Of a DNA stretch of 41,999 nucleotides, positions 5,631 through 33,812 are shown one piece after another. Below the pieces are notes generated by a model. It did no database searches, was not told the origin of the DNA, and saw only the letters and a list, made by a program, of their open reading frames with translations. Position numbers and translations under genes: made by a program. Position 1 is the first letter of the stretch, and every line of letters begins with the position of its first letter. The stretch comes from Eubacteriales bacterium (GTDB lineage: Bacteria > Bacillota > Clostridia > Oscillospirales > CAG-272), in contig JAZQYT010000088.1 of NCBI GenBank assembly GCA_045633665.1, forward strand, positions 1-41,999, read 5' to 3'.

Positions 5631-5695
5631 GCGCGTTCCCCGAACGCCTTGGAAAAATATGACGCTTTTTGTGGAATGATTTTTGACAAGCAAGC

Positions 5696-5727: not shown

Positions 5728-5769
5728 TGCGAAGGCCGAAGGTCGTAGCATTCCCCATATCTTTTTTTC

Positions 5770-5798: not shown

Positions 5799-6000
5799 GA
5801 TTTTCATATATGTGTAACAGGTGCGTCAATCCAATTTCACACACGCATGTCTATTCCAATATGCTATTCATAATATTCTCCTCCTTTCTGTTTTTTCAGG
5901 ATTATTCCCCTATAATTTTTCCGTCATATATATAAAGAGCAAAATTTCCATTTTTTCTTCAAAAAAGCAAAAATATTTTTGTAAACTAATTATGAACAAC

Positions 6001-6039: not shown

Positions 6040-6708
6040 TTATTCCTTGGGATGAATGCTATCTATAATCTTCAATATTTCTTCTTCAGAAAGAAATGAC
6101 CTGTCGTATATATACAAGGCATATTTTCCATCTGTCCACGTGTATGATACACTGGTTTCATGTCTCACACACAATATCTTGCATCCCTTATGATTTATGA
6201 TACTGTAATCGCTATATTCCGCGTCATATTGAATACAAATATTCAAATTATATTGTGCAAAGGTTAGTGTTTCTTCATTTTCGTTCATCCACCGATAAAA
6301 TATATCACCGGAGTTATATCGCTCTCGAATTAATTCATACCCCTCGGGTATATAGCCAACTTCATAAATCTCGGTGATATCCGGTGAGACTTGATCCTCG
6401 GTAAAGTCTAAAATGATATATTTCTCAAAGACCTGTATAAACAACTCCCTGATCTTTTCTCGGTTTGCGTATACGGTCAGTGAGCCAATGGCCAAGGCGG
6501 CTGCCAACAGCAACGCTGCGATCACGACCTTGCGCGTGGAACGTTTATTGATTGATCTTACGTCAACGCCCAATATTTCGCTCATTTTTTCCATATGCGC
6601 GTCCGAGCAGCGCACCTGAGCTTTGCAAGCGGAGATCTCGCGTTCATAGCGCTCGCTGACGCCCTGTATGATGGCGCGTTTGAGTAAAGCGGCTTGATCC
6701 TGCATCAT
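6040..6708 (-). CDS. membrane-anchored putative anti-sigma factor (DUF4367-like C-terminal domain)
   Basis: A 222-aa ORF whose start overlaps the sigma gene stop (ATGA at 6705-6708). It has one TM segment (VVIAALLLAAALAIGSLTVYA) after a roughly 60-aa cytoplasmic part. The extracytoplasmic domain resembles DUF4367 partners of Firmicutes sigma factors. Confidence 0.6.
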   Translation of the reverse strand: MMQDQAALLKRAIIQGVSERYEREISACKAQVRCSDAHMEKMSEILGVDVRSINKRSTRKVVIAALLLAAALAIGSLTVYANREKIRELFIQVFEKYIILDFTEDQVSPDITEIYEVGYIPEGYELIRERYNSGDIFYRWMNENEETLTFAQYNLNICIQYDAEYSDYSIINHKGCKILCVRHETSVSYTWTDGKYALYIYDRSFLSEEEILKIIDSIHPKE

Positions 6709-7262
6709 GATTCCTCCTTTGCCAATATTTCGATCAGCTTTTGCTTGCCGCGGCGCAGGCGCGTATATACCGTGCCGACGGGCAGCCCCATAAGCTTGGC
6801 AGCTTGATCAGCCGTCAGTCCCTCTGCATAGCACAAAAGCAACACCGTGCTGTATTTCGGATCCATATCACGTATGGCTGCCACGACCTCTGCATACCGT
6901 TCGCGGATATGGATTCTCTCAGCAAAATCCTGCATGCTTTCCATATCTGGATAGTCCATATCCTGCTGGCCGGGCAGCTCTTTTTCGGATAGTATCTTGC
7001 TGATCTCGTTATGTAAAATGGCAAAAACGTACGCCTTGACTTCCCTTTCCGATTTTCCAAAGGGTACGGCATGCGCATAACGTACGATGCAAAGAAACGT
7101 GCTTTGCACGGCATCCTCGGCATCCAGCCCGGGATTGTTTCGCTCGGCTGCAGAAAACGCCTTTATTGCCATTCGCAGCATTTTTTGATGATAGCGCTTG
7201 AATAATTGCTCAATCTGCGGGCGATACTGTTCGTCCGCAATCGTCATCAAAAACGTAAGCAT
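6705..7262 (-). CDS. RNA polymerase sigma factor, sigma-70 family (ECF-like, regions 2 and 4)
   Basis: A 185-aa ORF. The region-4 HTH reads LLLCYAEGLTADQAAKLMGLPVGTVYTRLRRGKQKL. RBS AAGGAGGGA lies upstream. Confidence 0.8.
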   Translation of the reverse strand: MLTFLMTIADEQYRPQIEQLFKRYHQKMLRMAIKAFSAAERNNPGLDAEDAVQSTFLCIVRYAHAVPFGKSEREVKAYVFAILHNEISKILSEKELPGQQDMDYPDMESMQDFAERIHIRERYAEVVAAIRDMDPKYSTVLLLCYAEGLTADQAAKLMGLPVGTVYTRLRRGKQKLIEILAKEES

Positions 7263-16493: not shown

Positions 16494-16534
16494 AATCAGC
16501 ACTCCTTATGATTCGATTGTTTGGATATATGCTC

Positions 16535-16598: not shown

Positions 16599-18176
16599 TT
16601 ATTCGTACATTTCAATCCTATTATTCTCTGTCATAACCATGCCATCCGTACAATAGATGGCAATTCCCTTTCTGATAGCACCCGATGCTACATCGATCTC
16701 CAGCCACTCTGCAACCGTTCCTTCATAATTCACTCTCCATAAAGAGGTACCGGGAACCAATGCATTGCTTTCGATCGATTTTATGCTGGTCGGGATGGTT
16801 ACACTTGTGAGCCATTCGCATCCGTAAAACGCGTGACTTGGCAGCACTTCGATTGGTTGTCCAAGTACAATATCACAGCCGATGCCACTCTCTCTGAAAG
16901 CTGAAGCTCCGAGCTTTGTGATCACGGTAAGCCCTTCGATCTTGTCAAGATTCGAGCATTTTCTGAACGCTGCCGCTCTGATTTCGGTCATGCTTTCACA
17001 TACTATGACACTGTTTAAGGATGTACAACCGTCAAACATGCTTTCTGCCACACGTTCAAGCGCTCCGAGCTCCGCCTTTATAAGCTCAGTACAGCCTTCG
17101 AATATACCCGAACCCACGTCTTCTACGTTGTTCGTAAACTTTACCGATCTCATGTCCGTGCAAGTCGCAAAAGCCTCGTCCCCAATGCTTGTAACAGTTT
17201 GTGCAATCGTTACGTTTCGAATGGTACTGCATCCGTAAAACGCTCTTTTGCCGATCACGGCAATCCCGTCAAGCTCGACCTTTTTCAGCGAGGTGCAGCC
17301 ATGGCACATGGATTCGGGGATCTCTGTAATAGCAGACGGCAGCGTGATCTTTTCGAGTGCGGTGCATTCGGAAAAGGCAAACGCACCGATCTTGGTGACT
17401 GAGTCCGGCACGGCAACGCTGATCAATGCGCTTTGCTGCGCGAACGCATTTGCATCAATGCTCGTCACGGCAATACCGTCATACTCCGCAGGGATTTCAA
17501 GCTCCGATTCTTGATAATTGTCCGTTGTCCCGACTACCGCAAACGTACCGTTCTCATAGCGAAGAACAAGTCCTAACGGCTCCACGGTCACATTCTGTCC
17601 CTCTGCATAACCATCGGTGGAATTCGTTTCAATCTGCGATTCGCTTTCCTCATCCGATTTAACGTCGGTCTCTGTCTCTGTAGACATCTCATCAATAATG
17701 GCGTCGATCTCTTGCTTATGATCAAGATAATATTGGTACATACGTGCAAGCAAATCACCAAGATCTTGCTTCATATTGCTAAAAAGTCCATCTGTATCTG
17801 TCTGCATCTGATCAATGACCGAATCCTCTGTTCCCGCACCGAGGGCAATGAAAACACTTTCGGTAAGCGGCCATTGTACCCAGTTGAGCTGCAACTTTTC
17901 TTGTGTATCGGAATCTTCCGCATCATCCAAGGGGAACAGGATCTGATCAATGGCTTCTGCAACGTAACTGTCGATCGCTTCGCGATTTTGATAGTATCCT
18001 ACGGGAAGTGCTACGAGCAGCAAGGTAAAGACAAGCGTGATACACGCAGCGCTGACCAATACCGTGCGAAGGCTCTTTTTTCGCTTGCGAAGCAAAAACG
18101 ATTCATATCTGTCATACTGCTCTAAATATTTCACGTCGATCAGGGAGATTGCATCTATCATCAAATCTTTATTCAT
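16599..18176 (-). CDS. module 1 membrane protein: short cytoplasmic N-terminus, one TM, conserved juxtamembrane domain, acidic linker, BspA-type LRR (LRR_5-like) ectodomain
   Basis: A 525-aa ORF. RKRKKSLR precedes the TM segment VLVSAACITLVFTLLLVAL. Repeats of the type IPDSVTKIGAFAFSECTALEKITLP follow. The start overlaps the sigma stop (ATGA at 18173-18176). Confidence 0.8.
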   Translation of the reverse strand: MNKDLMIDAISLIDVKYLEQYDRYESFLLRKRKKSLRTVLVSAACITLVFTLLLVALPVGYYQNREAIDSYVAEAIDQILFPLDDAEDSDTQEKLQLNWVQWPLTESVFIALGAGTEDSVIDQMQTDTDGLFSNMKQDLGDLLARMYQYYLDHKQEIDAIIDEMSTETETDVKSDEESESQIETNSTDGYAEGQNVTVEPLGLVLRYENGTFAVVGTTDNYQESELEIPAEYDGIAVTSIDANAFAQQSALISVAVPDSVTKIGAFAFSECTALEKITLPSAITEIPESMCHGCTSLKKVELDGIAVIGKRAFYGCSTIRNVTIAQTVTSIGDEAFATCTDMRSVKFTNNVEDVGSGIFEGCTELIKAELGALERVAESMFDGCTSLNSVIVCESMTEIRAAAFRKCSNLDKIEGLTVITKLGASAFRESGIGCDIVLGQPIEVLPSHAFYGCEWLTSVTIPTSIKSIESNALVPGTSLWRVNYEGTVAEWLEIDVASGAIRKGIAIYCTDGMVMTENNRIEMYE

Positions 18177-18757
18177 ACCGTAAAGCCCTCCTCTTCCAGC
18201 TTTTGGCGCAGCGTTTTTCTGATGTAGGAAATGGCTCTGTTGATCTTTGAACGATGCACATGTAGGATCTGCGCGATATCACCGATACCCTTACCGTAAT
18301 AAAAGCGGCTTATAAAGACGTAACGGTGCATCTCGTCAAGGCTGTCCAGATACTGTTCAATGATTTCCGCAAGTCTTAGAGTATCACTTTGCGCATACCC
18401 CTGCCCCTCTTCGCTGATAATCTCTTCAAGATCACTCAAAGAGATTGCCTGACTTACCCCTTCTCTTTTTTGGCTGTGCTTGTTTCTGTACAAGAGCAGA
18501 GAATGCCTTCTGATAATGGTGGATAAAAATGCCTTGAGATAATCGGGACGATGTGGGGGCATAGAGTTCCATGCAGATACGTAGGTATCGTTCAGGCATT
18601 CCTCACTGTCCGGTTCATTTTGCAAAATGTTTTTTGCTACTGTCAACAAGTATGCACGATATTTGCGATCTGTGTGTTTGATGGCATCTTCATTACGCGC
18701 CCAATAGAGATCAATGATCTCTGAATCACTGATCGCTTTCGTATTTTGATATTGCAT
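18173..18757 (-). CDS. module 1 ECF-like sigma-70 family sigma factor
   Basis: I placed the start at MQYQNTKAIS (ATG is the rc of 18755-18757, 7 nt after AAGGAGG). The region-2-like segment is DSEECLNDTYVSAWNSMPPHRP. The region-4 HTH is GIGDIAQILHVHRSKINRAISYIRKTL. Confidence 0.8.
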   Translation of the reverse strand: MQYQNTKAISDSEIIDLYWARNEDAIKHTDRKYRAYLLTVAKNILQNEPDSEECLNDTYVSAWNSMPPHRPDYLKAFLSTIIRRHSLLLYRNKHSQKREGVSQAISLSDLEEIISEEGQGYAQSDTLRLAEIIEQYLDSLDEMHRYVFISRFYYGKGIGDIAQILHVHRSKINRAISYIRKTLRQKLEEEGFTV

Positions 18758-18778
18758 ACGTGACCTCCTTTCTGTCAT

Positions 18779-18815
18779 TTCACCTATATAGATACATTTT
18801 TTTGCAAAATGTCCG
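18779..18815 (-). promoter_or_regulatory. module 1 candidate ECF-type promoter
   Basis: The minus strand reads GGAC, 16 nt, then TATCTATATAGGTGAA. It aligns with the motifs upstream of the other four module sigma genes. Confidence 0.45.
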
Positions 18816-18842
18816 CTTTTTTTGAAAAAATTTTCGATTTTA

Positions 18843-18875
18843 AAAGAGCGTCCGAACGATTGGTCAGACGCTCTT
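18843..18875 (-). terminator. rho-independent terminator after the DUF975 gene
   Basis: AAGAGCGTC (18843-18851) pairs with GACGCTCTT (18867-18875). On the minus strand it is followed by ttaaaatcgaaaatttttt. Confidence 0.6.
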
Positions 18876-18891
18876 TCTTATATTACTTGAA

Positions 18892-19704
18892 TCAGTATGA
18901 TTGCGTATCGTTTTCCGTTGACTGCTCGGGCTGTCCCGTAAATACAGACTCGGGATCGAACGCACAGGCATATACGTCGGACACGGGGCGCGTGCCGGAA
19001 AGCTCTCTGTAAAAATCAGCACGTGCGGCACTCTTATAAGGAATCAGCCAAATGTCACCGATGCCGCAGGTCAGCGAGCTCAGAATGTTCCATCCGATAA
19101 AGCTGAAGTCCAGGCAGAACAGGTTCCAACGGTAACCGCGCATCATTTCCTTGGAGCGCGTAATGGCTTCGTTAGGCCCTATCGTGGGATCATCCGCAAG
19201 TATGTACGGTACCATGGCATAGCTGTAACTTGCAATAATACCCGGAATGAAGCACAGAAGTGACCACAAAAATATGTATAAAGTTTCCAGCAATCCTGTA
19301 AGGCCGATGTTTTTCCATGCATGAAAATACTTGAACAAGGTGACAAGATCAGGCTTTTTACCGTCGATGAGATCCATGTTAAAGCACGCATATCCTGTTC
19401 TGATGATCGACGAGAAGAAACGCCAGGCAAGTGCCCATACCAATGCAATGGCAAATACGACGATGAATACACCTCCAATGATCGCCAAAAGCATCATCGT
19501 TTCCTCATCCAATTCTCCGGGTACCACTTCAGTCGTTCCCTCTTCGGTAGTCTCTCCAAAGTTAATTCTTGGCTGTCCGACCGTACTGCCTACGGTAGTT
19601 GCGCCAAGCAAGGAGGCAATCAAGCCTGCAAGGATCGCCCAGCCCCACTGTCCACTCAGAGCATTTCTTGCTGCCGCTCTGAAATCAGCTGCTCTTTTAA
19701 TCAT
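18892..19704 (-). CDS. DUF975-family integral membrane protein
   Basis: I placed the start at MIKRAADFRAAARNALSGQWGWAILAGLIASLL (ATG is the rc of 19702-19704, 5 nt after GGAGG). It is polytopic, and the N-terminal pattern is typical of DUF975. Confidence 0.65.
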   Translation of the reverse strand: MIKRAADFRAAARNALSGQWGWAILAGLIASLLGATTVGSTVGQPRINFGETTEEGTTEVVPGELDEETMMLLAIIGGVFIVVFAIALVWALAWRFFSSIIRTGYACFNMDLIDGKKPDLVTLFKYFHAWKNIGLTGLLETLYIFLWSLLCFIPGIIASYSYAMVPYILADDPTIGPNEAITRSKEMMRGYRWNLFCLDFSFIGWNILSSLTCGIGDIWLIPYKSAARADFYRELSGTRPVSDVYACAFDPESVFTGQPEQSTENDTQSY

Positions 19705-19910
19705 ATAAACCTCCATGCCGCCTTCGGCGGCTCAAATATTGATGGAAACTTCACCGCGGAGCTTTTCTCCAAAAATGGGCCGGGCCCATTTTTCGGTGAA
19801 GTTTAAGCGTGAATGGTTGAGTATAAAGGAATATTGCGTGAACTTTCACGCTATTCTCCTTTCAAGGGCTTTACGTAGTGTACGCCCAAATATATTTCTT
19901 GCTTGATATG
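19705..19910 (-). promoter_or_regulatory. about 200-nt structured 5' leader with an internal terminator-like hairpin (candidate attenuator or riboswitch)
   Basis: On the minus strand there is a nested stem, cttcaccg...cggtgaag, enclosing AAAAATGGGCC-CG-GGCCCATTTTT (+ strand 19770-19794). Further stems are gcgtgaaagttcacgc, gggc...gccc and gccgccgaaggcggc, the last directly before the RBS. Confidence 0.4.
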
Positions 19911-19939
19911 ATTATATCACGTTTTCCCACTTTTTGCAA
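19911..19939 (-). promoter_or_regulatory. sigma-70-type promoter of the DUF975 leader
   Basis: The minus strand reads TTGCAA (19934-19939), a 17-nt spacer, then TATAAT (rc of 19911-19916). Confidence 0.55.
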
Positions 19940-19944
19940 TACTT

Positions 19945-21432
19945 TTATTCAATAATGATCTGTCCATCAACGCATTGGATGATGATGCCCCTTTCAATGC
20001 CGTGTTCGGATATACGAACGCTTTCCCACTCTGCAACCGCACCGCGAAATTCTATGATCTCGAGCACATTGTTATCAATGAATGCAGCGTCTGCAATTTC
20101 TTTGAGCGTATTGGGCAAGGATACGCTTGTCAGATTCCCGCAGGCTGAAAACGCATAGATACCGATCCTTTCAACGCCGTCAGGCACGGTCAGAGAGGAA
20201 ATGCCCGTGTTGTAAAAGCTTTGCGGTTCAATCTCGGTAATCCCTTTCGGAAATGCCAGATCGTAATTCGAAAGCGTACCTCTGAATGCTTCCGAGCCGA
20301 TAAACTCCATGCTTTCGGGCAATTTTCCCAACTTCAATTCATAGCATTCAAAGAAAGCGTGCGTATCAATCTTTTTGACGCTTTCGGGGATATTGACACT
20401 CTGCAGCGCGACACATCCAAAGAATGCAAAGGATCCTATGATCTCCAAGCCACTTGGCAGTTCAATGCTCTGCAGCGATTGACACTTGAGGAATACGCTG
20501 TCGTTGATCACTTTCAGATTTACGGGAAGCTGCTTGACATAGGTTAGCGAAGAACAGTACGCAAACGCACTCGATCCGATCGTTTCCACGCTGTCCGGGA
20601 TCACGACCTCAACGATCTGATCACAGTACGAAAAAGCGTAATTTTCAATCGCCTTGACAGGCAGTCCTTTGAAAGTTTCCGGAATGTTCAGAACGGTTTC
20701 TTGCGTGTTCGCAAGGCTGATGACTGTGTAATAGCTCTCGTCCTCGCTGAGCGCCAGAATAAAGGTGCCGTCAGATTCGGTCACGTGAGTCGATGAGTCG
20801 TCCTCGGTGATCTGTTCAGTTCCGTGATCCGGCAGCGTCTCGACTTCGGTCTCTATTTCAGTTTGGGTTTCCCTGTCGGTTTCGGTTTCAATTTCGCTCT
20901 CGGTTTCGCTTTCACTTTCCGATTCACGTTCGTCTATGACACCTTCGATATCGTCCTTGTGATCCAAATAATACTGATAAAGTCGTTCCAGAAACGCGCC
21001 GAGGCTTTGCAATAGTTCACCGGCAAGGCCGCTGTGATCCCCTTGCATAAAATCAATCGCAGAATCCTGCGTGCCTGCACCGAGCGCTTCAAAGAATTTT
21101 GCTGCGAGGGGCATCTTTGTCCAATCCAAAAGCAATTCTTCTTTTGCAATATCGCTATCCTGCTCCTTATCCAGCGGAAACAGCACGCGATCCACCGCCT
21201 GTACGAATGCGTTATCAACAGCCTCGCGGTTGGTAATATACACGATGGGCAGCGATGCAACAAGCAAGGTAAATGTCAGCAAAAGCGCGGCTGCCGCAAC
21301 CAGCGTGCGTTTGATCCACTTCCGTTTCTGCCTGTGCAATCTTTTCTGCAAGGCGCGTTCGGTCTGCTCAAAATCTGCAAGATAGGCGTGGTCAATGTAA
21401 CCGACCGCCTCGATCAAAAATTCCTTTGTCAT
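19945..21432 (-). CDS. module 2 membrane protein with BspA-type LRR ectodomain
   Basis: A 495-aa ORF with the same architecture as module 1. The TM segment is LVAAAALLLTFTLLVASLPIVYI and the acidic linker is SESESETESEIETETDRETQTEIETEVE. There is an ATGA overlap at 21429-21432. Confidence 0.8.
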   Translation of the reverse strand: MTKEFLIEAVGYIDHAYLADFEQTERALQKRLHRQKRKWIKRTLVAAAALLLTFTLLVASLPIVYITNREAVDNAFVQAVDRVLFPLDKEQDSDIAKEELLLDWTKMPLAAKFFEALGAGTQDSAIDFMQGDHSGLAGELLQSLGAFLERLYQYYLDHKDDIEGVIDERESESESETESEIETETDRETQTEIETEVETLPDHGTEQITEDDSSTHVTESDGTFILALSEDESYYTVISLANTQETVLNIPETFKGLPVKAIENYAFSYCDQIVEVVIPDSVETIGSSAFAYCSSLTYVKQLPVNLKVINDSVFLKCQSLQSIELPSGLEIIGSFAFFGCVALQSVNIPESVKKIDTHAFFECYELKLGKLPESMEFIGSEAFRGTLSNYDLAFPKGITEIEPQSFYNTGISSLTVPDGVERIGIYAFSACGNLTSVSLPNTLKEIADAAFIDNNVLEIIEFRGAVAEWESVRISEHGIERGIIIQCVDGQIIIE

Positions 21433-22010
21433 ATCGAATAGCCCTCCCTTGCAAGATATTCGCGCAAGGACTGCTTGATCAGTGCGATCTCGCGATTGAC
21501 CGTGCCGCGGCTGACGCCGAGCATGGTGGCGATCTGCTCAATGGGACGCGCATAAAAATAGCGGCTGATGAAAATGTAACGCCTCCGGTCATCCAGCGCG
21601 GCAAGATACGCGTCAAGCACCTTGCCAAGCACGCGGGCGCGCTCCTCGGTTTCATCCGAGGCATCGGTCACAGCATAATCCGAAAGGTCGTCAAATGACA
21701 CGGAAAGCGATTGCGGTACCGACTTTTGCGTATGATGGCTGCGGTAAACGTCAATGGCCTTGCGGCGCATGATGGCACAAAGAAATGCGGGCAGCACCTG
21801 CGGACGGTGCGGCGGCATGGAATTCCATGCACCGACGTATGTGTCGTTCAGGCATTCCTCGCGGTCTTGCAGATCGGAAAGAATCCCTTTGACCACCGTG
21901 AGCAGATACGTGCGATATTTCAGATCTGTATACTCTATCGCTTGCTCGTCCCGCGCCCAATACAAATCAATGATGGTCGTATCGTCAGGGATGAAGGTTT
22001 GGTTTTGCAT
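21429..22010 (-). CDS. module 2 ECF-like sigma factor
   Basis: I placed the start at MQNQTFIPDD (ATG is the rc of 22008-22010, 8 nt after AAGGAG). It is a paralog of the module 1 sigma (IIDLYWARDEQAIEYTDLKYRTYLL...EECLNDTYVGAWNSMPPHRP). Confidence 0.8.
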   Translation of the reverse strand: MQNQTFIPDDTTIIDLYWARDEQAIEYTDLKYRTYLLTVVKGILSDLQDREECLNDTYVGAWNSMPPHRPQVLPAFLCAIMRRKAIDVYRSHHTQKSVPQSLSVSFDDLSDYAVTDASDETEERARVLGKVLDAYLAALDDRRRYIFISRYFYARPIEQIATMLGVSRGTVNREIALIKQSLREYLAREGYSI

Positions 22011-22033
22011 GCTTTTCACTCCTTTTTGTATCC

Positions 22034-22070
22034 TTCACCCTTTATGTCGTAATATTTTTCAAAAAGTACC
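22034..22070 (-). promoter_or_regulatory. module 2 candidate ECF-type promoter
   Basis: The minus strand reads GGTAC, 16 nt, then CGACATAAAGGGTGAA. Confidence 0.45.
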
Positions 22071-22109
22071 ACGATTTCAGAAATTTTTTTAATAATTTTC
22101 AAGCAACAC

Positions 22110-22135
22110 CGACCGGGCGTTATTTCACCCGGTCG
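22110..22135 (-). terminator. terminator-like hairpin after the module 3 LRR gene
   Basis: CGACCGGG (22110-22117) pairs with CCCGGTCG (22128-22135). The T-tract that follows on the minus strand is only modest. Confidence 0.45.
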
Positions 22136-22144
22136 ACTGCGCGT

Positions 22145-24406
22145 TTATTTTGCCGTGATCTCACCGTCTGAGCAAACGATGATCACGCCTTGCGGTATAT
22201 TGGCATATTTCGTATTGACCTGCTCCCATTGCGAGACGCTACCCTTATAGTATATATGCGTCAAGGATTCGCAATAGGTAAAGGATGAAGAGCCGATCTT
22301 TGTCACGCTTGTGGGAATGGTGACGGTGATCAGGTTGCTTGCCACGTTGAAGGCTTGTCTTGCCAGCTCCACGACCGTGTCCGGGATCTCACAATGCTCA
22401 ATGCCCGTTTGTGAATAAAAGCCGTTGGGCAGCACTCTCAGCTGCGTGGAATAGGTCACCTGCTTCAAAGCGGTGCAACCGCTGAATACGCTGTCCCCTA
22501 TACGTATAAGCGATTCGGGCAGCGCAACGCGCTCAAGCGATGTGCAGCCCAAGAAGGCTAAATCTCCAAGGAAATCAAGACCTTCGGGAATGATGATCTC
22601 TGCAAGCAACGCGCAATTTCCAAATGCCTGAGATCCTATGGTTTGTATGCCGCTGCCGAGTATCACGCTCTGCAGGCCTGAGCCGCTGAACGCTTTTCCT
22701 CCGATGGATTGCAACGAAGACGGTGCATCAAGACGCTCAAGGCTTGCGCAATTCATAAAGGCACTCTCTTCGATCTTTTTCACACCCTCTTCAAGGCGAA
22801 GCTGCGTCAAGGAGGTGCATCCGGAAAAAGCAGCATTTGAGATCACCTCAACGTTCCCGGGAACGCTCAGTGTATGCATTGCCGTGCATTCGGAAAAAGC
22901 GTAGCTGCCGAGCTGTTCAAGGTGTGGCGGCAAGGTAACGGATTGCAGCGAGATGCAGCCGGCAAAAGCAGAGTCATCGATCAGAGCAAGACTTTCGGGA
23001 AGCTCTATTTGCGCAAGATCCGTGCAATCCTTAAAGGCAAATGCTCCGATCTCCGTGATGCTATCTGGCAGATTGACCTGCTTTAAGGGCCAGCAGCCCT
23101 GGAAAGTCCCCTCTTCAATGCGGGACAGCGATGCAGGGATCGTAACGCTCGCAAGTCCCTTACAATCGCAGAATGCATATTTACCGATCCCGATAAGCGT
23201 ATCGGGCAGGTCGATCGTATTGAGAGATACGCACTTATAAAACGCATATTCACCGATCAAATTTAACCCGGACGGCATCTTGAAGCTGTCCAGCTTCTGG
23301 CAGTTATAAAATGCATTTTTTTCGATTGCCGTAACGGTTTCGGGCAAAATCACGGTTTCCAGTTTCAAGCAATTATTGAAGAAACGCTCGGGAAGAACCG
23401 GGATAGGGCTTTCAATGCACACGTACGTAAGGCTGTCAGCACCGTCAAAAATCATATTTCCAAGCTCGGTGCAGGACGCTGGGATGATGATCTCGGTCAG
23501 CGAGGTACATGCACGGAAAGCGCTTGTTCCGATTTGGATCACGCCTTCGGGAATGGTGATCTCCGAAAGCGAGCTGCATTTGGAGAACGCTTCAACACCA
23601 ATCGTTTCCAGACCTTCTGCAAGCGTGACGCGTTCAAGGGACGTACATTCAATAAAGGCTTGATCTCCGATAATTTTGATCCCTTCGTGAAGCACCACTT
23701 CCTTAATGCCCGTGCAACCCATAAAAGCACCCTGATATATGCCCGTGACCGGCAGACCTTTATAGGTTGTGGGAATGATGATGACCTCATCCGTACACTC
23801 GTTGAGATCGGATACGAGATAAGAGTTGTTGTAATAATCCTTCTGATATCTCAGTCCCCTGCTGCCGTCCACCTCGTAGTCGGGCTCTGTTTCGGTTTGG
23901 TCGGACTCGGTATCCTCGTCCTCCTGATCCGTGATCAGATCGTTGTGATCCAGATAGTATTGATACATGCGGTCAAGGAATGCGCCAATGCTTTGCATAG
24001 CGTCCCCTGCAAGGCCGCCTTGCGCGTTTTGCATCATGTCGGCAAACGAATGCTCACCACCCATGCCAAGCAGATCAAATATCTGTTCGGTAACCGGCCA
24101 CTTGATCCAGCTATGCTGCAGCTCCTCCTGATCGATCTCTGCGTCCTCGCGATCAAGCGGAAACAGCACGCGATCCACTATCGGGGTAAGCGCTTGGTTG
24201 ATCGCCTCGTGATTGACGATATAGATAAGCGGCAGCGATGCTACAAGCAAGGTGAAGGTCAAAAGCAGACAAGCGGCTGCGAGCAGCAGTTTGCCCCATG
24301 CGGGCATTTTGCGCTTGTGCGTCAAGCGGTATTCGGTACGGGTATAGCTTTCCAAAATGTCAACGTCGATCATGCCAAGAGCATCTACAAACATATCTTG
24401 CGTCAT
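22145..24406 (-). CDS. module 3 membrane protein with expanded BspA-type LRR ectodomain
   Basis: A 753-aa ORF with the same N-terminal architecture. The LRR region is roughly twice as long as in the other modules. There is an ATGA overlap at 24403-24406. Confidence 0.8.
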   Translation of the reverse strand: MTQDMFVDALGMIDVDILESYTRTEYRLTHKRKMPAWGKLLLAAACLLLTFTLLVASLPLIYIVNHEAINQALTPIVDRVLFPLDREDAEIDQEELQHSWIKWPVTEQIFDLLGMGGEHSFADMMQNAQGGLAGDAMQSIGAFLDRMYQYYLDHNDLITDQEDEDTESDQTETEPDYEVDGSRGLRYQKDYYNNSYLVSDLNECTDEVIIIPTTYKGLPVTGIYQGAFMGCTGIKEVVLHEGIKIIGDQAFIECTSLERVTLAEGLETIGVEAFSKCSSLSEITIPEGVIQIGTSAFRACTSLTEIIIPASCTELGNMIFDGADSLTYVCIESPIPVLPERFFNNCLKLETVILPETVTAIEKNAFYNCQKLDSFKMPSGLNLIGEYAFYKCVSLNTIDLPDTLIGIGKYAFCDCKGLASVTIPASLSRIEEGTFQGCWPLKQVNLPDSITEIGAFAFKDCTDLAQIELPESLALIDDSAFAGCISLQSVTLPPHLEQLGSYAFSECTAMHTLSVPGNVEVISNAAFSGCTSLTQLRLEEGVKKIEESAFMNCASLERLDAPSSLQSIGGKAFSGSGLQSVILGSGIQTIGSQAFGNCALLAEIIIPEGLDFLGDLAFLGCTSLERVALPESLIRIGDSVFSGCTALKQVTYSTQLRVLPNGFYSQTGIEHCEIPDTVVELARQAFNVASNLITVTIPTSVTKIGSSSFTYCESLTHIYYKGSVSQWEQVNTKYANIPQGVIIVCSDGEITAK

Positions 24407-24984
24407 ACGATATACCCCTCCTTTGCAAGCGTTGCTCGGAGTGATTGCTTGATGGCAGCAATTTCTTTATTGATCGTCGAACGGCTACAGGAAAGCTCTT
24501 CCGAGATCTGCTCGATGGGCTTTGCGTAATAATAACGGCTGATAAAAATGTAGCTTTGGCGCTCGGACAGCGTGCGCAGCCAGCTGCTGATGATCTGCGA
24601 TAGTTCTGCGGTTTCTTGCCAAGTATACTGGCTCTCGCTATCCGGGATAAAATCCTCAAAGTCGGTCAAAGAAAAGGTTGTGCCTATGCTTCTCTTTTGT
24701 CTGTGCTTATTTCTGTATCTGGTAATGGCGATCTTGCGCATGATAGAGCCAAGAAAGGTCTGCAGCACGCTCGGACGGTGCGGCGGGATAGCATTCCAGG
24801 TACCAACGTACGTATCGTTCAGGCATTCCTCGCTATCCTGCATATCGTTCAGGATATTCTGCGAGATGCTGATCAGATATTTTCGATATTTGACGTCGGT
24901 TGCCTTGATGGCCTCCTCGTCGCGTGCCCAGTAAAGCGCGATGATCTCGTCATCACTACGCACACTTACGAATCGATCTTGCAT
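24403..24984 (-). CDS. module 3 ECF-like sigma factor
   Basis: A 193-aa ORF with AAAGGAGAG upstream. It is a paralog of the other module sigma factors (IIALYWARDEEAIKATDVKYRKYLI...EECLNDTYVGTWNAIPPHRP). Confidence 0.8.
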   Translation of the reverse strand: MQDRFVSVRSDDEIIALYWARDEEAIKATDVKYRKYLISISQNILNDMQDSEECLNDTYVGTWNAIPPHRPSVLQTFLGSIMRKIAITRYRNKHRQKRSIGTTFSLTDFEDFIPDSESQYTWQETAELSQIISSWLRTLSERQSYIFISRYYYAKPIEQISEELSCSRSTINKEIAAIKQSLRATLAKEGYIV

Positions 24985-25017
24985 TGTTTGCTCTCCTTTA
25001 CGGTTTAGATATTTGCT

Positions 25018-25054
25018 TTCGTAAGTATAGTCGCCAAAAGCGGGAAAAAGTGTA
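25018..25054 (-). promoter_or_regulatory. module 3 candidate ECF-type promoter
   Basis: The minus strand reads TTACAC, 16 nt, then CGACTATACTTACGAA. Confidence 0.4.
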
Positions 25055-25122
25055 ATACTTTTTTCAAATATTCACGTTCTGACTATATTTTACCACAAAT
25101 CCGAAATATTGCAAGAGGATAA

Positions 25123-25152
25123 ATAAGGCAGCGACCAAAATCGCTGCCTTAT
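25123..25152 (-). terminator. rho-independent terminator after the module 4 LRR gene
   Basis: ATAAGGCAGCG pairs with CGCTGCCTTAT. On the minus strand it is followed by ttatcctctt. Confidence 0.6.
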
Positions 25153-25156
25153 GTGA

Positions 25157-26560
25157 TTAGTCTTGTATCACGATCTCACCGTCGGTGCAGACGATGACGG
25201 TTCCGCCCCAGATTGCACCCTCTTCCAATATGATTTGATTCCACTCTGCCATTGTACCTCGGAATTCAATCGTTTTGAGTTGCTCAAGCTTGTAAAAGCC
25301 CTGTGATTCGATCTTTTTCAAGGATGACGGCAAGGAGAGCGAAACAAGCTTTTTGCAATCCTCGAAAGCGTGCCGCCCAATTTCCGTAACCCCGTCCGGC
25401 ACATATGCAGATACTATACCGCAGGTATAAAAAGCACTGGATTCAATTCTTGAAAAGCCCTCGGGGATGACCATATCACATCCTCCGAGAGAACCGTAGA
25501 AGGATTGTGAGCCGATGAAATCCATGTGATCCGGCAGATCAATGGTTTTCAAATTGTGACAGCCAAAAAATGCTCTCTCACCGATGGATACCACCGTTTC
25601 AGGAATATTGATACTCGGCAAGGACTGACAGCGGTAAAAGGCATATGAACCGATCTTCTCTACACCTTCGGGCAACGTGATCTCTTCCAGCTGATAACAG
25701 TCTATGAACAGATCTCCATCGATCACGGTCAAATATTCCGGCATGCGTACAACTTTGAGCTTATAACAGTGACCAAATGCGCGATACCCTATCTTCTCCA
25801 CACCGCTCGGAATATGCACTTCAGTGATCTCTTCTTCACGGTCAAACGCTTCGGGTGCAATCTCCTTGACCGGAATACCGTTGACATGATCCGGAATGAT
25901 CACAACAGTATCGTTTCCCTCCAACCCGTTTACTACGTAATAATCTCCGGTATCACTCAGTGTGTATCTTATTCCGTCTTTGATGATGTTTGCTTTCACA
26001 GCTGTTTCGGCTTCGGATTCTGATTCGGTTTCACTTTCACTTTCACTTTCTCTTGTTTCTTCGTCCGGCAATGTTTGTATTCTATCCTTGTGCTTCAGAT
26101 AATACTCGTAAAGTCTTTCCAACAGCTTGCCAAGGCTTTGCAGCGTTTCTCCGACAAGGCCTTGCTGCTCACCCATCATCTGATCGATTACTGAGTCCTC
26201 GCTGCCTGCACCAAGCGCGTTGAATACCTGCTCGGTCATCTGCCACTGCGTCCAGTCAAGCATCAGATCTTCTTTTTTGATCTCGGAGTCAGTGTCATCA
26301 AGAGGGAAGATGACGCGATCAACGGCCTTGATGAACGGGTTATCAACGTCATCGTGATTGAAAACGTACACCAACGGCAGTGTTGTCACAAGCAGCGCAA
26401 GGATCAGCACCATAGAGATCGCGGCAACCGACAGCGCGATCAGATAGCGTCTTCCCTTTTTTGGCCTGCGGCTGCGCAGGCTGTTGTCCAAGCGCACGTA
26501 TTCTTCGATCAGATCGGTATCCACCAATCCGACAGCGTCAATAAACATAGATGCATTCAT
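25157..26560 (-). CDS. module 4 membrane protein with BspA-type LRR ectodomain
   Basis: A 467-aa ORF with the same architecture. The acidic linker is RESESESETESESEAE. There is an ATGA overlap at 26557-26560. Confidence 0.8.
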   Translation of the reverse strand: MNASMFIDAVGLVDTDLIEEYVRLDNSLRSRRPKKGRRYLIALSVAAISMVLILALLVTTLPLVYVFNHDDVDNPFIKAVDRVIFPLDDTDSEIKKEDLMLDWTQWQMTEQVFNALGAGSEDSVIDQMMGEQQGLVGETLQSLGKLLERLYEYYLKHKDRIQTLPDEETRESESESETESESEAETAVKANIIKDGIRYTLSDTGDYYVVNGLEGNDTVVIIPDHVNGIPVKEIAPEAFDREEEITEVHIPSGVEKIGYRAFGHCYKLKVVRMPEYLTVIDGDLFIDCYQLEEITLPEGVEKIGSYAFYRCQSLPSINIPETVVSIGERAFFGCHNLKTIDLPDHMDFIGSQSFYGSLGGCDMVIPEGFSRIESSAFYTCGIVSAYVPDGVTEIGRHAFEDCKKLVSLSLPSSLKKIESQGFYKLEQLKTIEFRGTMAEWNQIILEEGAIWGGTVIVCTDGEIVIQD

Positions 26561-27138
26561 ACCGTATACCCCTCCTTTTCAAGTGCTGCTTTCAAAGAGG
26601 CCTTGATATATGCAATGTCCGCGTTGACAACCGAGCGCGTGCAGCCCAATACCTGCGCGATCTCTTCAATCGGTCGCGCATCGTAATAGCGGCTCATGAA
26701 TACATAACGTCTGCGCTCGCTGAGCGTGCGCATCCACGTGCTGATCACGTCAGCCAACGCACTTGCCTCGGCCTGCGTATACGCGTCGTTTTCATGCAAT
26801 GAATATTCCAGATCCGACAATGGAACCGAAAACGCCGGCGGTACGCTCTTCTTTGCATGCTTTTGCCTATACTTATCAATGGCTAGATGGCGCGTAATGG
26901 TACTCAGGAATGCCTGCAGCAGCTTGGGACGGTGCGGAGGAATGGAATTCCACGTATCAAGATACGTATCGTTCAGACATTCCTCGCTGTCCTGCATATC
27001 CTGCAGCAGGTTATACGCAACGTGCAGCAGATAATTACGATATTTGGCGTCTGTATGCTTGATCGCGGCCTCGTCCCTTGCGAAATACAGTTCCACTATG
27101 GCAGAGTCGCTGAGTAAATACGTTTGATTTTTTGGCAT
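26557..27138 (-). CDS. module 4 ECF-like sigma factor
   Basis: I placed the start at MPKNQTYLLSD (ATG is the rc of 27136-27138, after AAGGAGG). It is a paralog of the other module sigma factors. Confidence 0.8.
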   Translation of the reverse strand: MPKNQTYLLSDSAIVELYFARDEAAIKHTDAKYRNYLLHVAYNLLQDMQDSEECLNDTYLDTWNSIPPHRPKLLQAFLSTITRHLAIDKYRQKHAKKSVPPAFSVPLSDLEYSLHENDAYTQAEASALADVISTWMRTLSERRRYVFMSRYYDARPIEEIAQVLGCTRSVVNADIAYIKASLKAALEKEGYTV

Positions 27139-27160
27139 ATGCGACCTCCTTCTTGTTAGC

Positions 27161-27198
27161 TTCACTTATATAGACGAAAAAACGGGACGAAAAGTCAG
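27161..27198 (-). promoter_or_regulatory. module 4 candidate ECF-type promoter
   Basis: The minus strand reads CTGAC, 17 nt, then CGTCTATATAAGTGAA. No terminator separates it from the module 5 LRR gene. Confidence 0.45.
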
Positions 27199-27218
27199 AA
27201 TAATTTTATTTTTTTGAA

Positions 27219-28703
27219 TTACTTTGGTTGATAATCTCCGTCCGAGCAATGTACAGTATACGTAAACGGATGATTATACCAGATATATGTTTTGCTTATC
27301 TGCTTCCATTGCTCCACGGTGCCGGTATAATCATATTCTCTTACGGAAGTATACTTGAACGCATTCGATCCGATGTTGACAAGTTTATCCGAGAATGTAA
27401 CCTTGGTCAGCTTCTTACAGCTTTGGAACGCGCTCGTCTTGATCTCCTGCAGACTCTCGGGAAGTGTCAATTCGGTCAATGCACAGCCCTCGAATGCATA
27501 ATCGCCGATCTCTGTAACGCTATCCGGCAATTCCAAGGTGTGCAAGGCATCGCACGACTGGAATGCATATCTTCCAACCTTTTTCAGCCCGTCACCGATC
27601 GTGACTTTTTCAAGTGACGTGCATTTGAAAAACGTTGCCTCTCCAGTTGTTTCAATTCCCGACGGGATCTCGATCTCGGTCAGCGCGCTGCAACCGTGAA
27701 ATGCTCTGTCACCAAGTGATTTCAGATTTTTCGGCATATCCACGCTTTGCAGCGACGTGCAGTCTTCAAAAGCGTTGATACCGATGATTTTGGTCGTATC
27801 CGGAATGGTGATGGATTGCAAGGAAGTACAGCCCTTAAAGGCACACATTTCGATCTCGGTCAATTTTTCGGAGAGATACACCTCACGCAAATTGGTACAG
27901 CCCTCAAACGCCCAGTCCCTGATCACGCTGACCGAATCTCCCATATAAACCAGCTCCAACGATTCGCATCCGTCAAACATATTGCTTTGGATCGCGCCGA
28001 CTCCGCCGAGAATATAGACCTCTTTCACATGCTTATCATACTTGAACAGATCCCTCTTGATCTCCACCACGCGTTTGCCGTTATGCTCTGCAGGAATGCA
28101 TACCACACCGTCAGCGCCCAGCACGTAACCGGTTACGCGGTAATTGCCTGCCGAGGTAGTTTCAAAGCTCAAGCCCATGCTGACCTCGGGGATCGGAATG
28201 GGATATTCCTTGTCGGTTTCGGTTTCGGTTTCTTGCTCGGCTTTGTCATGATCGTCGCTTACGTGCTTGAGATAATATTCGTAAAGCTCATCAAGCAAGC
28301 ACCCTGCCTGTACAAAGCTTTCGCTAAGCAGGCCGCGATCCGATTGCTTCAAGGCATTGGCAAACGAATCCTCCTGCCCCATGCGCAGCATCTCAAAGAT
28401 CTTTGCAGTTACATCCCATTTCGTCCAATCACCAACAATGCTGTCCTCAACCTCCTCGGGCATCAGATGCTCCTGTACGCTTTGCCCAAACGACTCGGGA
28501 AGGATCAACGCGTACAGCGGCAAAGAAACAAGCAAAATACTCATCACCAGCACAAGACAGGCTGCACTGATCAGAACGCTCAAACGCGTTTTTCTCTTAC
28601 GCTTTACGATCTGCGCGCCGTACTGTGCATCGATTTTGAGAAAATCTTCAATGATAGACACGTCGATCATGCCGATCGACTCTGCAAGCATAGCCTTTTT
28701 CAT
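27219..28703 (-). CDS. module 5 membrane protein with BspA-type LRR ectodomain
   Basis: A 494-aa ORF and the most divergent paralog. The TM segment is LSVLISAACLVLVMSILLVSLPL and the linker is EQETETETD. There is an ATGA overlap at 28700-28703. Confidence 0.8.
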   Translation of the reverse strand: MKKAMLAESIGMIDVSIIEDFLKIDAQYGAQIVKRKRKTRLSVLISAACLVLVMSILLVSLPLYALILPESFGQSVQEHLMPEEVEDSIVGDWTKWDVTAKIFEMLRMGQEDSFANALKQSDRGLLSESFVQAGCLLDELYEYYLKHVSDDHDKAEQETETETDKEYPIPIPEVSMGLSFETTSAGNYRVTGYVLGADGVVCIPAEHNGKRVVEIKRDLFKYDKHVKEVYILGGVGAIQSNMFDGCESLELVYMGDSVSVIRDWAFEGCTNLREVYLSEKLTEIEMCAFKGCTSLQSITIPDTTKIIGINAFEDCTSLQSVDMPKNLKSLGDRAFHGCSALTEIEIPSGIETTGEATFFKCTSLEKVTIGDGLKKVGRYAFQSCDALHTLELPDSVTEIGDYAFEGCALTELTLPESLQEIKTSAFQSCKKLTKVTFSDKLVNIGSNAFKYTSVREYDYTGTVEQWKQISKTYIWYNHPFTYTVHCSDGDYQPK

Positions 28704-29281
28704 ACCGTATACCCCTCCTTTGCGAGAAATTCACGCAAGGAGCTTTTGATCGCAGCGATCTCCCTGTGTACCGTGGCCTGACTGCAGCCGATCCTTTTGG
28801 CGATCTGCTCGATCGGCCATGCGAAATAATAGCGTCCGACAAAAATGTAGCGCGTTCTTTGCGGCAGACCGTTGATATATCGTCCGAGCGCATCTGCCAA
28901 CACATCGCACTCCTTGTTGCTGTACGCATCCTCTTGTGAAAGATCCATATTGCCAAAGTCGTCCAGCGGCATCATCAGCGACTTGGGAATCTGCGAAGGG
29001 CCTGTCTTTTTTCTGTGTACGTCAATGGCGCTGCGCCTTGTAATGGCGGTCAAAAATGCTTGCAAAGCATGCGGTCTTGCAGGCGGAATGGCATTCCACG
29101 TACGAAGATAGGTATCATTCAAGCATTCCTCACTGTCCTGCATATCATGCAGGATGTTTTGCGCGACCGTGAGCAAATACCGCCTGTATTTCAGATCGGT
29201 ATGCTTGATCGCGTCTTGATTTCTTGCCCAGTAAAGGTCCACAATTTCAGGATCGCTGAGCATTGAATTTACGTCTTGCAT
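28700..29281 (-). CDS. module 5 ECF-like sigma factor
   Basis: A 193-aa ORF. The ATG is the rc of 29279-29281, 7 nt after GGAGG. It is a paralog of the other module sigma factors. Confidence 0.8.
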   Translation of the reverse strand: MQDVNSMLSDPEIVDLYWARNQDAIKHTDLKYRRYLLTVAQNILHDMQDSEECLNDTYLRTWNAIPPARPHALQAFLTAITRRSAIDVHRKKTGPSQIPKSLMMPLDDFGNMDLSQEDAYSNKECDVLADALGRYINGLPQRTRYIFVGRYYFAWPIEQIAKRIGCSQATVHREIAAIKSSLREFLAKEGYTV

Positions 29282-29316
29282 TAAAAATCCTCCTTTGAAA
29301 TTGAGATAAATTTCCT

Positions 29317-29354
29317 TTCACTCTCATAGTCGTATACTTGGACAAAAAACTATC
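29317..29354 (-). promoter_or_regulatory. module 5 candidate ECF-type promoter
   Basis: The minus strand reads GATAG, 17 nt, then CGACTATGAGAGTGAA. Confidence 0.4.
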
Positions 29355-29363: not shown

Positions 29364-29400
29364 AAAAAACAGGCGAAAATATTTTTTCGCCTGCTTTTTT
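29364..29400 (-). terminator. rho-independent terminator after asnS
   Basis: The minus strand reads aaaaaaGCAGGCGAAAAaatatTTTTCGCCTGttttttc. Confidence 0.75.
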
Positions 29401-33800: not shown

Positions 33801-33812
33801 ACAGACCTCCAA

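Follow-up and report, generated by a model that had tools for sequence, protein, structure and literature searches.

The window analysed here, a contig of 42 kb from an uncultured, gut-type member of the Clostridia (Eubacteriales bacterium), carries five two-gene units, each made up of a gene for a sigma factor of the extracytoplasmic function (ECF) type and a gene for a single-pass membrane protein with a leucine-rich repeat (LRR) ectodomain. All ten open reading frames (ORFs) of the five units are present where they had first been noted, and all read on the minus strand; we refer to the sigma factors as S1–S5 and to their partners as M1–M5 (Table 1). The preliminary description, made from the letters of the sequence, had called the locus a head-to-tail tandem array. 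The five units do lie on one strand, but they are not strictly contiguous, as a DUF975 membrane-protein gene stands between units 1 and 2. All five sigma factors match Sigma70_r2, Sigma70_r4_2 and Sigma70_ECF above the Pfam gathering scores, and Sigma70_r4 as well, and the TIGR02937 (sigma70-ECF) model gives them 62–68 bits against a cut-off of 42.9. With sigma-2 and sigma-4 domains only, and a length of 193–194 amino acids (aa), S1–S5 are ECF (group 4) sigma factors; none of them passes the cut-off of an NCBIfam subfamily or equivalog model.

At all five junctions, the sigma gene and the partner gene overlap by 4 nt (ATGA), as had been described, and a GGAGG Shine–Dalgarno sequence sits within the last codons at the 3′ end of the sigma gene. 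The sigma genes are five copies at the DNA level with 62–71% identity. At the protein level, the paralogous sigma factors are 43–54% identical and the LRR parts 18–44%, and the five units are old paralogs rather than recent duplicates. The chance that this five-fold paralogy arose by accident is negligible.

The partners share one architecture, which the alignment shows as it had been outlined in the preliminary description: a cytoplasmic motif, one transmembrane helix, a juxtamembrane region of ~100 aa, an acidic E/T/S/D linker, LRRs and a C-terminal cap (G..W....C.DG), with the motif, the juxtamembrane region and the cap invariant or conserved. The earlier domain calls were borne out by hidden Markov model searches, in which Sigma70_r2/r4 match all five sigma factors and LRR_5 (PF13306) matches all five partners, the latter with E-values from 1e-50 to 7e-180. 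The tandem repeats have a period of 23 aa, as in BspA-type LRR_5 solenoids, and vary in number, M3 having the longest solenoid with ~24 of them; the first ~200 aa of M1–M5 have no match in Pfam or NCBIfam. Each partner has a single hydrophobic helix at about residues 38–65, with five to eight Lys/Arg in the 15 aa before it and none or one after it, which confirms the inside-positive topology proposed before and places the N-terminus in the cytoplasm (N-in). The cytoplasmic part, rightly called unusually short, is 38–42 aa long, has a net charge of −2 to −5 in its first 25 residues, and contains no Cys in any of M1–M5, so that the absence of an HxxxCxxC zinc motif also holds. The hydrophobic stretch spans 25–30 aa, with a conserved (S/A)LP at its end; AxA site and lipobox are absent, and M1–M5 accordingly have neither the cleavable signal peptide nor the lipobox of BspA surface proteins.

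An AlphaFold2 model of M2, built from a 34-sequence alignment, has a mean predicted local distance difference test (pLDDT) score of 82. It predicts a helix at residues 3–10, followed by a long helix (15–67) that extends from the cytoplasm across the membrane, a helical juxtamembrane domain (74–159, pLDDT ~70–84), a disordered stretch (162–213, pLDDT <50) and the LRR solenoid (214–495, pLDDT >93). The juxtamembrane domain modelled alone is again all-helical, with moderate confidence (pLDDT 69). Using Foldseek, we found that the M2 solenoid resembles the BspA-like LRR proteins 4fs7, 4gt6 (Faecalibacterium) and 4h09, TpLRR (6mlx) and PcpA (4cp6), the probability being 1.0 for 4fs7, 4gt6 and 6mlx.

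The pairing of sigma factor and partner is conserved beyond the window. Syntenic loci between AsnRS and Mem_trans/UDG/MecA genes hold 5, 5, 5, 3, 2, 2 and 2 units, and three species-level genomes retain the array with all five units. A survey of related genomes, which the preliminary description had put forward, thus finds the pairing kept and the copy number varying between two, three and five units in related metagenome-assembled genomes (MAGs). The initial word-indexed searches were insensitive (five matches for the N-terminal module and one for a 66-aa motif profile) and were replaced by an exhaustive search of representatives and a sigma-anchored metagenome scan. The full LRR-type N-terminal module (aa 1–167) is rare, with 36 clusters at E≤1e-30 among 1.84 billion representatives, and LRR_5 is present in 32 of 34 clusters with the full module; a pattern-limited search found it in at least three 'Eubacteriales bacterium' MAGs among 185,579 species representatives. 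In the window and in the related loci L001–L015, every module-bearing ORF directly follows a family sigma gene, and the pairing is found in all of the >30 units of the window and related MAG loci. The coupling proposed at the outset is therefore not an accidental adjacency, since all related loci that were examined have a sigma gene of this family directly before each partner gene.

The best sigma ortholog and the best partner ortholog belong to the same unit in 13 of 13 comparisons. The cytoplasmic tails are 21–41% identical between paralogs, which is below the identity of the sigma factors, and 70–95% identical between orthologs, the pattern to be expected of tails that each fit one cognate sigma factor. 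The ratio of nonsynonymous to synonymous substitution rates (dN/dS) is 0.05–0.15 for the sigma factors, 0.07–0.26 for the tail with the transmembrane helix (one short segment, 0.61), 0.07–0.28 for the juxtamembrane domain and 0.07–0.23 for the LRR part. These low values indicate that the genes are functional. By this measure all parts are under purifying selection, each LRR surface being maintained and not diversified, and for the LRR part taken as a whole domain, diversifying selection is rejected.

Unit 3 shows more plasticity than the other four. Its LRR part is 555 aa long in the window versus 464 aa in the ortholog at L001:7795-9864, with 47% identity, and the juxtamembrane domains of the two are 40% identical and the sigma factors 89%. 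In another related locus (L013:10217-12813), the sigma ORF is truncated to 133 aa and is followed by a 180-nt gap and an intact LRR partner of 671 aa; this unit retains an ECF-type promoter at L013:10156-10193. The truncated sigma factor could reflect gene decay or an assembly frameshift.

The LRR-type partners are part of a much larger set. S2 has at least 897 relatives at E≤1e-10 in a word-limited search, and the few named members of the family are labelled as Clostridia or Ruminococcaceae MAGs. The sigma-anchored metagenome scan returned >517 relatives, of which the best 80 loci, many from the human gut, were analysed. In these loci, 78 of 82 sigma genes are followed by a partner ORF at position +1, with a 4-nt overlap in 71 of the 82. 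The 66-aa motif profile matches 67 of the 78 partners, and the rest show the same pattern by eye. Their ectodomains differ widely, including RsgI_M with PepSY repeats, sulfatase, Big_14, DUF4367, a sub-threshold DUF4179 and another LRR_5 architecture, and most have no Pfam domain. Weak matches to the module profile likewise cover residues 1–60 only, i.e. the cytoplasmic motif, the basic patch and the transmembrane helix, in proteins (P0171, P0183, P0177 and one in L015) whose ectodomains are unrelated and without a Pfam domain. All four weak-match proteins with an examined context are encoded directly behind a sigma gene of the same family, which they overlap by 4 or 7 nt, and the sigma factor in L006, the only one of these that was aligned with S2, shares 52% identity with it.

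The cytoplasmic motif and the transmembrane helix are thus the only region common to partners with unrelated ectodomains. Because the tail is kept across these ectodomains, it belongs functionally, together with the transmembrane helix, to the sigma factor, with the ectodomain as an exchangeable input module; such an arrangement would be expected of an anti-sigma module that can carry different sensors. The motif L..AIG.ID..hhEEA, the basic patch and an AAC-type transmembrane helix are the hallmark of partners whose ECF sigma factors number at least in the hundreds, many of them from human-gut metagenomes, and this N-terminal motif is not covered by Pfam or NCBIfam. In one family relative (L047:6561-8381), the ectodomain carries RsgI_M (PF23750, 66.9 bits), a match that ties the family to a proven anti-sigma design. 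The array is best read as the LRR_5 branch of a large, unannotated family of putative modular sigma/anti-sigma pairs. Of the LRR-type partners, 24 of 24 carry an XAA motif within the transmembrane helix, in its half towards the cytoplasm, as do 32 of 36 others. The LRR-type partners therefore combine a single N-in helix with a candidate XAA degron, as is typical of substrates of intramembrane proteolysis. In the transmembrane helices of RsgI proteins, XAA motifs are recognized by ClpXP after cleavage by RseP (PMC12203970).

Several members of the wider family stand out individually. The partner at L027:951-2999 has a sulfatase-domain ectodomain, and that at L022:603-2174 has LRR_5 behind a different, non-helical juxtamembrane region, which means that LRR_5 occurs in at least two partner architectures. 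A very common relative on human-gut contigs L047–L095 (e.g. L047:6561-8381 and L080:1167-3839) combines the tail and transmembrane helix with RsgI_M and PepSY repeats. Among contigs on which the N-termini are near-identical, the partners range in length from 148 to 891 aa, which suggests variation in repeat number or truncation between strains.

To locate promoters, a two-block position weight matrix (PWM) was built only from eight sites in other loci and then applied to the window. Each of the five sigma genes is preceded by the motif nnnAC(T/A)TTT, 12–13 nt, CG(A/T)CTATA, ~3 nt, GTGAA, and the five sites score 19.1–32.5 bits. No further site on either strand of the 42 kb exceeds 17.5 bits, and the maximum in 20 shuffles is 17.4 bits. 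In ~230 kb of related loci, every site of ≥19 bits directly precedes a family sigma gene; the scan also finds sites in loci outside the PWM training (L009–L013 and L015), and a predicted ECF-type promoter precedes all related sigma genes in L001–L015. An AAC-like −35 and a CGT/CGA-like −10 element are characteristic of ECF promoters, such as those of Bacillus subtilis sigmaW and sigmaX. The unit 5 promoter is conserved in orthologous units (L010:5046-5083 and L001:2874-2911), that of unit 4 is identical at L010:7197-7234, and that of unit 1 is identical at L001:13034-13070 and nearly so at L009:4538-4574; orthologous sites also exist for unit 3 (L001:7147-7183, L010:9353-9389 and L011:7314-7351) and unit 2 (L009:1426-1462 and L001:9942-9978). 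The five units differ from one another in bases next to the −35 'AC' and inside the −10 element, and orthologous units of different genomes keep these bases, suggesting that promoter recognition is specific to each paralog. Positive autoregulation of each unit through its own predicted promoter is the best explanation for this arrangement. Longer forms of two sigma genes, starting at an ATG at 18778 (S1) and a GTG at 27165 (S4), were rejected because promoters overlap these starts, the former abutting the unit 1 promoter and the latter lying inside the unit 4 promoter.

A strong intrinsic terminator after the AsnRS gene is predicted to insulate the array from upstream transcription, and two more strong ones follow M4 and the DUF975 gene. 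There is none after M5, M2 or M1, nor between M5 and the unit 4 promoter. As no terminator intervenes, transcripts of unit 5 may continue into unit 4, those of unit 2 into the DUF975 gene and those of unit 1 into the GH123-like gene downstream.

Table 1. Features of the sigma/LRR array and its surroundings (positions in the window)
Feature	Position	Strand	Details
ECF sigma factor S1	18173..18757	-	194 aa; Sigma70_r2, Sigma70_r4_2, TIGR02937
ECF sigma factor S2	21429..22010	-	193 aa; Sigma70_r2, Sigma70_r4_2, TIGR02937
ECF sigma factor S3	24403..24984	-	193 aa; Sigma70_r2, Sigma70_r4_2, TIGR02937
ECF sigma factor S4	26557..27138	-	193 aa; Sigma70_r2, Sigma70_r4_2, TIGR02937
ECF sigma factor S5	28700..29281	-	193 aa; Sigma70_r2 39.6 bits, Sigma70_r4_2 39.7, TIGR02937 65
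Partner M1	16599..18176	-	525 aa; LRR_5 E 1.8e-64; transmembrane helix aa 39-57
Partner M2	19945..21432	-	495 aa; LRR_5 match; AlphaFold2 model
M2 cytoplasmic part	21307..21432	-	aa 1-42
M2 transmembrane helix	21238..21306	-	aa 43-65
M2 helical juxtamembrane domain	20950..21237	-	aa 66-161
M2 disordered acidic linker	20794..20949	-	aa 162-213
M2 LRR solenoid and cap	19948..20793	-	aa 214-495
Partner M3	22145..24406	-	753 aa; LRR_5 E 7e-180 in 6 stretches
Partner M4	25157..26560	-	467 aa; LRR_5 E 8e-51; transmembrane helix aa 40-58, N-in
Partner M5	27219..28703	-	494 aa; LRR_5 E 1.8e-84; transmembrane helix aa 43-61; short linker
Unit 1 ECF-type promoter (predicted)	18779..18815	-	CGGACATTT, 12 nt, TATCTATATAGGTGAA; 31.7-32.0 bits
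Unit 2 ECF-type promoter (predicted)	22034..22070	-	GGTACTTTT, 12 nt, CGACATAAAGGGTGAA; 24.1-27.5 bits
Unit 3 ECF-type promoter (predicted)	25018..25054	-	TACACTTTT, 12 nt, CGACTATAC..ACGAA; 19.1-25.2 bits
Unit 4 ECF-type promoter (predicted)	27161..27198	-	CTGACTTTT, 13 nt, CGTCTATATAAGTGAA; 32.5-34.5 bits
Unit 5 ECF-type promoter (predicted)	29317..29354	-	GATAGTTTT, 13 nt, CGACTATG..GTGAA; 23.7-28.8 bits
Intrinsic terminator after AsnRS gene	29364..29399	-	16-nt inverted repeat, 94% complementary, then T run
Intrinsic terminator after M4	25123..25152	-	hairpin -20 kcal/mol, then U-rich tail
Intrinsic terminator after DUF975 gene	18845..18874	-	hairpin -17 kcal/mol, then UUU
DUF975 membrane-protein gene	18892..19716	-	DUF975 E 5e-36; between units 1 and 2, not an array unit
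GH123-like gene	13836..16502	-	GH123_cat E 1.9e-14; directly downstream of unit 1

These data are consistent with the partners being anti-sigma-type regulators of the adjacent sigma factors, which we consider quite probable; the fuller statement, in which sensing by the LRR domain and intramembrane proteolysis are included, seems to us likely, with less assurance. The preliminary reading of the units as sigma/anti-sigma pairs stands as far as the coupling and the retention of the tail with the sigma family across differing ectodomains are concerned, and from these observations, together with the gene structure, topology, predicted promoters and selection, we infer that the tail binds and inhibits the sigma factor, that the partner is cleaved by proteases, that the LRR part meets ligands and that the units are insulated from one another. 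In the proposed mechanism, the sigma factor and its partner would be made together through translational coupling, and the acidic N-terminal tail of ~40 aa, with two short predicted helices of which the second is continuous with the transmembrane helix, would hold the cognate sigma factor at the membrane and thus act as a minimal anti-sigma domain. The helical juxtamembrane domain, the disordered acidic spacer and the LRR solenoid would form the input side outside the cell. A ligand that attaches to the LRR domain, or a force that pulls at this domain, may make the partner a substrate for regulated intramembrane proteolysis, possibly with a mechanical load passed via the spacer to the juxtamembrane domain and with the ectodomain removed or unfolded. 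A site-2 protease would then cut within the transmembrane helix and expose the XAA motif to ClpXP, and degradation of the tail would free the sigma factor, which would drive its own paralog-specific promoter to give more sigma factor and receptor, and also targets elsewhere in the genome. With their diverged tails, promoters and LRR surfaces, the five units are probably five insulated channels for five different ligands. A bolder version, which we regard as tentative and rather doubtful, would see in the partners bacterial LRR receptors, in which a ligand- or force-gated LRR sensor and a helical juxtamembrane transducer act on a new minimal ~40-aa anti-sigma class that is widespread in gut Clostridia, five orthogonal copies telling apart five surface ligands (e.g. 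host or microbial glycoproteins).

A number of results weigh against this interpretation. The tail shows no similarity to described anti-sigma domains in Pfam or NCBIfam, and a profile search of the N-terminal module against PDB sequences gave nothing significant. Even at E≤10, Pfam returns only noise for 26 N-terminal modules (Sigma_reg_N E 0.07; DUF4179 E 0.2), with no RsgI_N or RsgI_M. According to the model, the juxtamembrane domain is not a SEAL/RsgI_M domain, and a fold search with the juxtamembrane-only model found no structural neighbour at E<2. The partners show no sign of site-1 cleavage, and no site-2 protease or Clp gene is among the genes of the 42-kb window. The nearest LRR structures are those of surface proteins and adhesins of unknown or adhesive function. 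Finally, the only promoter sites found drive sigma–LRR operons, so that the LRR protein could be the main output and not just the sensor.

The last two points are the core of the strongest alternative, in which the LRR proteins would be membrane-anchored adhesins and the main targets of the adjacent sigma factors, with the tail serving insertion, localization or positive help to the sigma factor and not inhibition. The restriction of the sigma-type promoters to the sigma–LRR operons, the resemblance of the LRR part to PcpA, TpLRR and BspA-like surface proteins of gut bacteria, and the lack of a match between the tail and any anti-sigma family all agree with it. However, the tail and transmembrane helix are also kept with unrelated ectodomains (sulfatase, PepSY and RsgI_M), and because of this conservation the function of the tail relates to the sigma factor and not to adhesion. 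The translational coupling, the XAA motif and the paralog-specific divergence of the tails fit a stoichiometric binder. We therefore judge this alternative unlikely on balance, and it is not exclusive of an anti-sigma role, as an anti-sigma factor can also be an adhesin.

It is less probable still that the units form a contingency system, in which bistable feedback of the sigma factors would turn on alternative LRR surfaces stochastically, with no external ligand. Positive autoregulation of each unit can yield bistability, and five LRR surfaces with 18–44% identity would provide the variants, but a search found no inverted repeats of invertible promoters, and copies with 62–71% DNA identity show no recent gene conversion or homogenization. 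The LRR parts are moreover under purifying selection with 1:1 orthologs across species, which is atypical of antigenic variation. The charged N-terminal region followed by a hydrophobic stretch could also be taken for an extended, cleavable secretion signal of ~65 aa, as extended signal peptides occur in other surface proteins; the LRR proteins would then be released or wall-associated, with co-transcription as their only tie to the sigma factor. The length of the hydrophobic stretch and its conserved (S/A)LP end in place of an AxA site, the ~38 conserved acidic residues before the basic patch, the association of this N-terminus with one sigma family across hundreds of loci, and the lack of a sortase or lipobox signal make this very improbable. 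Chance adjacency or an annotation artefact can be dismissed, given the pairing in >30 units and in 78 of 82 metagenomic sigma genes with a +1 partner, the conserved synteny and promoters, and dN/dS far below 1.

To place the putative anti-sigma factors among known systems, we compared them with the SigI/RsgI pairs of C. thermocellum and B. subtilis, which the preliminary description had named as a precedent. RsgI proteins consist of a tail, a transmembrane helix, a folded juxtamembrane domain, a disordered region and a binding module, and it has been proposed that autoproteolysis of the SEAL domain, together with force on the ectodomain, controls when site-2 cleavage can occur (10.1101/2023.06.27.546760). 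As regards architecture, the comparison is apt: both systems have multiple paralogous pairs per genome in which the sigma gene is followed by that of a single-pass N-in partner, the array partners share the domain order including the disordered spacer and the C-terminal binding module, XAA motifs occur in the transmembrane helices, and one relative of the same family carries RsgI_M. In contrast to sigma-I with its sigmaI-C domain, S1–S5 are canonical ECF sigma factors with Sigma70_r4_2; the window partners have no RsgI_N or RsgI_M match even at E≤10, their juxtamembrane domain is predicted to be helical and not a SEAL β-sheet, and the sensor is LRR_5 instead of a carbohydrate-binding or glycoside hydrolase (GH) module.

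With the classical sigmaW/RsiW, sigmaV/RsiV and sigmaE/RseA systems, the units share the autoregulated two-gene operon, the ECF promoter (AAC-like −35 and CGT/CGA-like −10) and the N-in single-pass partner, and once site-2 cleavage has taken place, the Ala-rich motif of the transmembrane helix could act as a degron, as in systems in which the sigma factor is released by intramembrane proteolysis. However, class I anti-sigma domains (zf-HC2, RskA and similar) are N-terminal four-helix domains, often with HxxxCxxC, and are ~80–90 aa long, compared to ~40 aa in the array, which has neither the zinc motif nor a Pfam anti-sigma match. In class II domains of the CnrY type, a very short cytoplasmic segment of two short helices, which binds sigma-2 and sigma-4, lies directly N-terminal to the transmembrane helix. 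The short tail is reminiscent of these domains, and the modelled helices of M2 (3–10 and from 15 onwards) are compatible with them, a likeness of predicted helices. CnrY itself differs in being a small partner protein of Proteobacteria, periplasmic, metal-sensing and without a large ectodomain. Class II domains are treated in PMC6101532 and PMC7406223. Proteins of the DUF4179/DUF4367 type are Firmicutes-specific, single-pass and encoded at position +1 after an ECF sigma gene (PMC7826278), and some partners of the wider family match DUF4367, or DUF4179 weakly. The LRR partners of the window remain below the cut-offs of both models; for DUF4179 (PF13786), sub-threshold matches occur in only 2 of 26 members, the best having E 0.2 and 12.5 bits versus a cut-off of 30.1. 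The array thus belongs neither to SigI/RsgI nor to a classical anti-sigma family, because its sigma factors are canonical ECF, RsgI_N, RsgI_M, zf-HC2, RskA and DUF4179 are undetected, the tail has half the class I length, and the juxtamembrane domain is helical in the model.

BspA-type LRR_5 proteins have the same 23-aa repeat and solenoid fold, but they are secreted, lipid-anchored or wall-anchored and their genes do not overlap a sigma gene, whereas the array partners add the tail, the signal anchor and the juxtamembrane domain. The likeness to Toll-like receptors and plant LRR receptor kinases is one of concept only, i.e. an LRR ectodomain, a single transmembrane helix and a cytoplasmic part controlling transcription; there is no homology beyond the repeat type, and the proposed output is sigma release and not a kinase or TIR cascade.

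None of the papers searched connects LRR or BspA-type domains with anti-sigma factors, in line with the earlier remark that described anti-sigma factors are not known to have such a sensor, and the ECF reclassification paper does not mention LRR or BspA-type anti-sigma ectodomains (PMC7826278). What is new here is the proposed sensor type, the undescribed juxtamembrane domain and the unannotated minimal tail motif, and not the sigma/anti-sigma logic itself, which is well known. As modular anti-sigma ectodomains are expected, specialists would find the array notable rather than astonishing. Few surface proteins of gut anaerobes are as abundant, or as little understood, as those of the LRR_5 (BspA-like) type, which are as a rule regarded as adhesins; a branch wired to sigma factors, if true, would show that they can act as signalling receptors, and would provide five naturally insulated sets of sigma factor, promoter and receptor. 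Should the partners prove to be LRR receptors, they would be a prokaryotic counterpart of Toll-like and LRR-receptor-kinase signalling and an ECF analogue of RsgI mechanotransduction. Recognition of the N-terminal motif as an anti-sigma module would let many 'hypothetical' membrane proteins be annotated as sensors with PepSY, sulfatase-like, Ig-like or LRR inputs. The array is a concrete case of possible bacterial LRR receptors and points to a large unannotated anti-sigma class in gut Clostridia.

The genes flanking the array include housekeeping genes (AsnRS, aspartate aminotransferase, a DinG-like helicase, MecA, UDG and CobW-like GTPases) and three glycoside-hydrolase-like genes (GH78-like at 440-2653, GH123-like at 13836-16502 and GH42-like at 31842-33812), with a sub-threshold GH99-like match at 35921-37621; the array itself is bordered by housekeeping genes (AsnRS, UDG and MecA). 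From this neighbourhood, the preliminary description had raised the possibility that the units control a response to glycans. In the window and the ~230 kb of related loci, the sigma-type promoter stands solely before sigma genes, and none precedes the GH genes of the window, so that a regulatory link through shared promoters was rejected. The GH123-like gene lies 96 nt from unit 1 with no terminator between them, has no ECF-type promoter, and is missing in the 2-unit locus L004. Beyond proximity and possible read-through, the glycan link is not supported.

The DUF975 gene within the array encodes a multi-pass membrane protein and is served by a sigma-70-like promoter of its own (TTGCAA, 17 nt, TATAAT at 19939-19911), with a long, structured leader of 228 nt (19717-19944); there is no Rfam match anywhere in the window, this leader included, and no tRNA gene. 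L001 has the gene at this position of the array, L004 and L013 lack it, and it is conserved there in 5-unit relatives only.

A sixth ECF sigma gene (6705-7262, minus strand) overlaps by 4 nt the gene of a DUF4367 single-pass protein (6040-6708), and the encoded sigma factor gives no match to the profile made for the family of S1–S5. Directly downstream of this pair, the region 3900-6000 has a low GC content (39.5% versus ~49%) and contains small lipoprotein-like ORFs (4662-5408 and 3992-4414) without a Pfam match. Further along, an in-frame TAG at 3210-3212 (minus strand) splits a radical-SAM gene (CAHGGCIYC) into ORFs 3210-3524 and 2520-3173 (...KVIP*FQAHTNSYAP...), and is either a nonsense mutation or a sequencing error.

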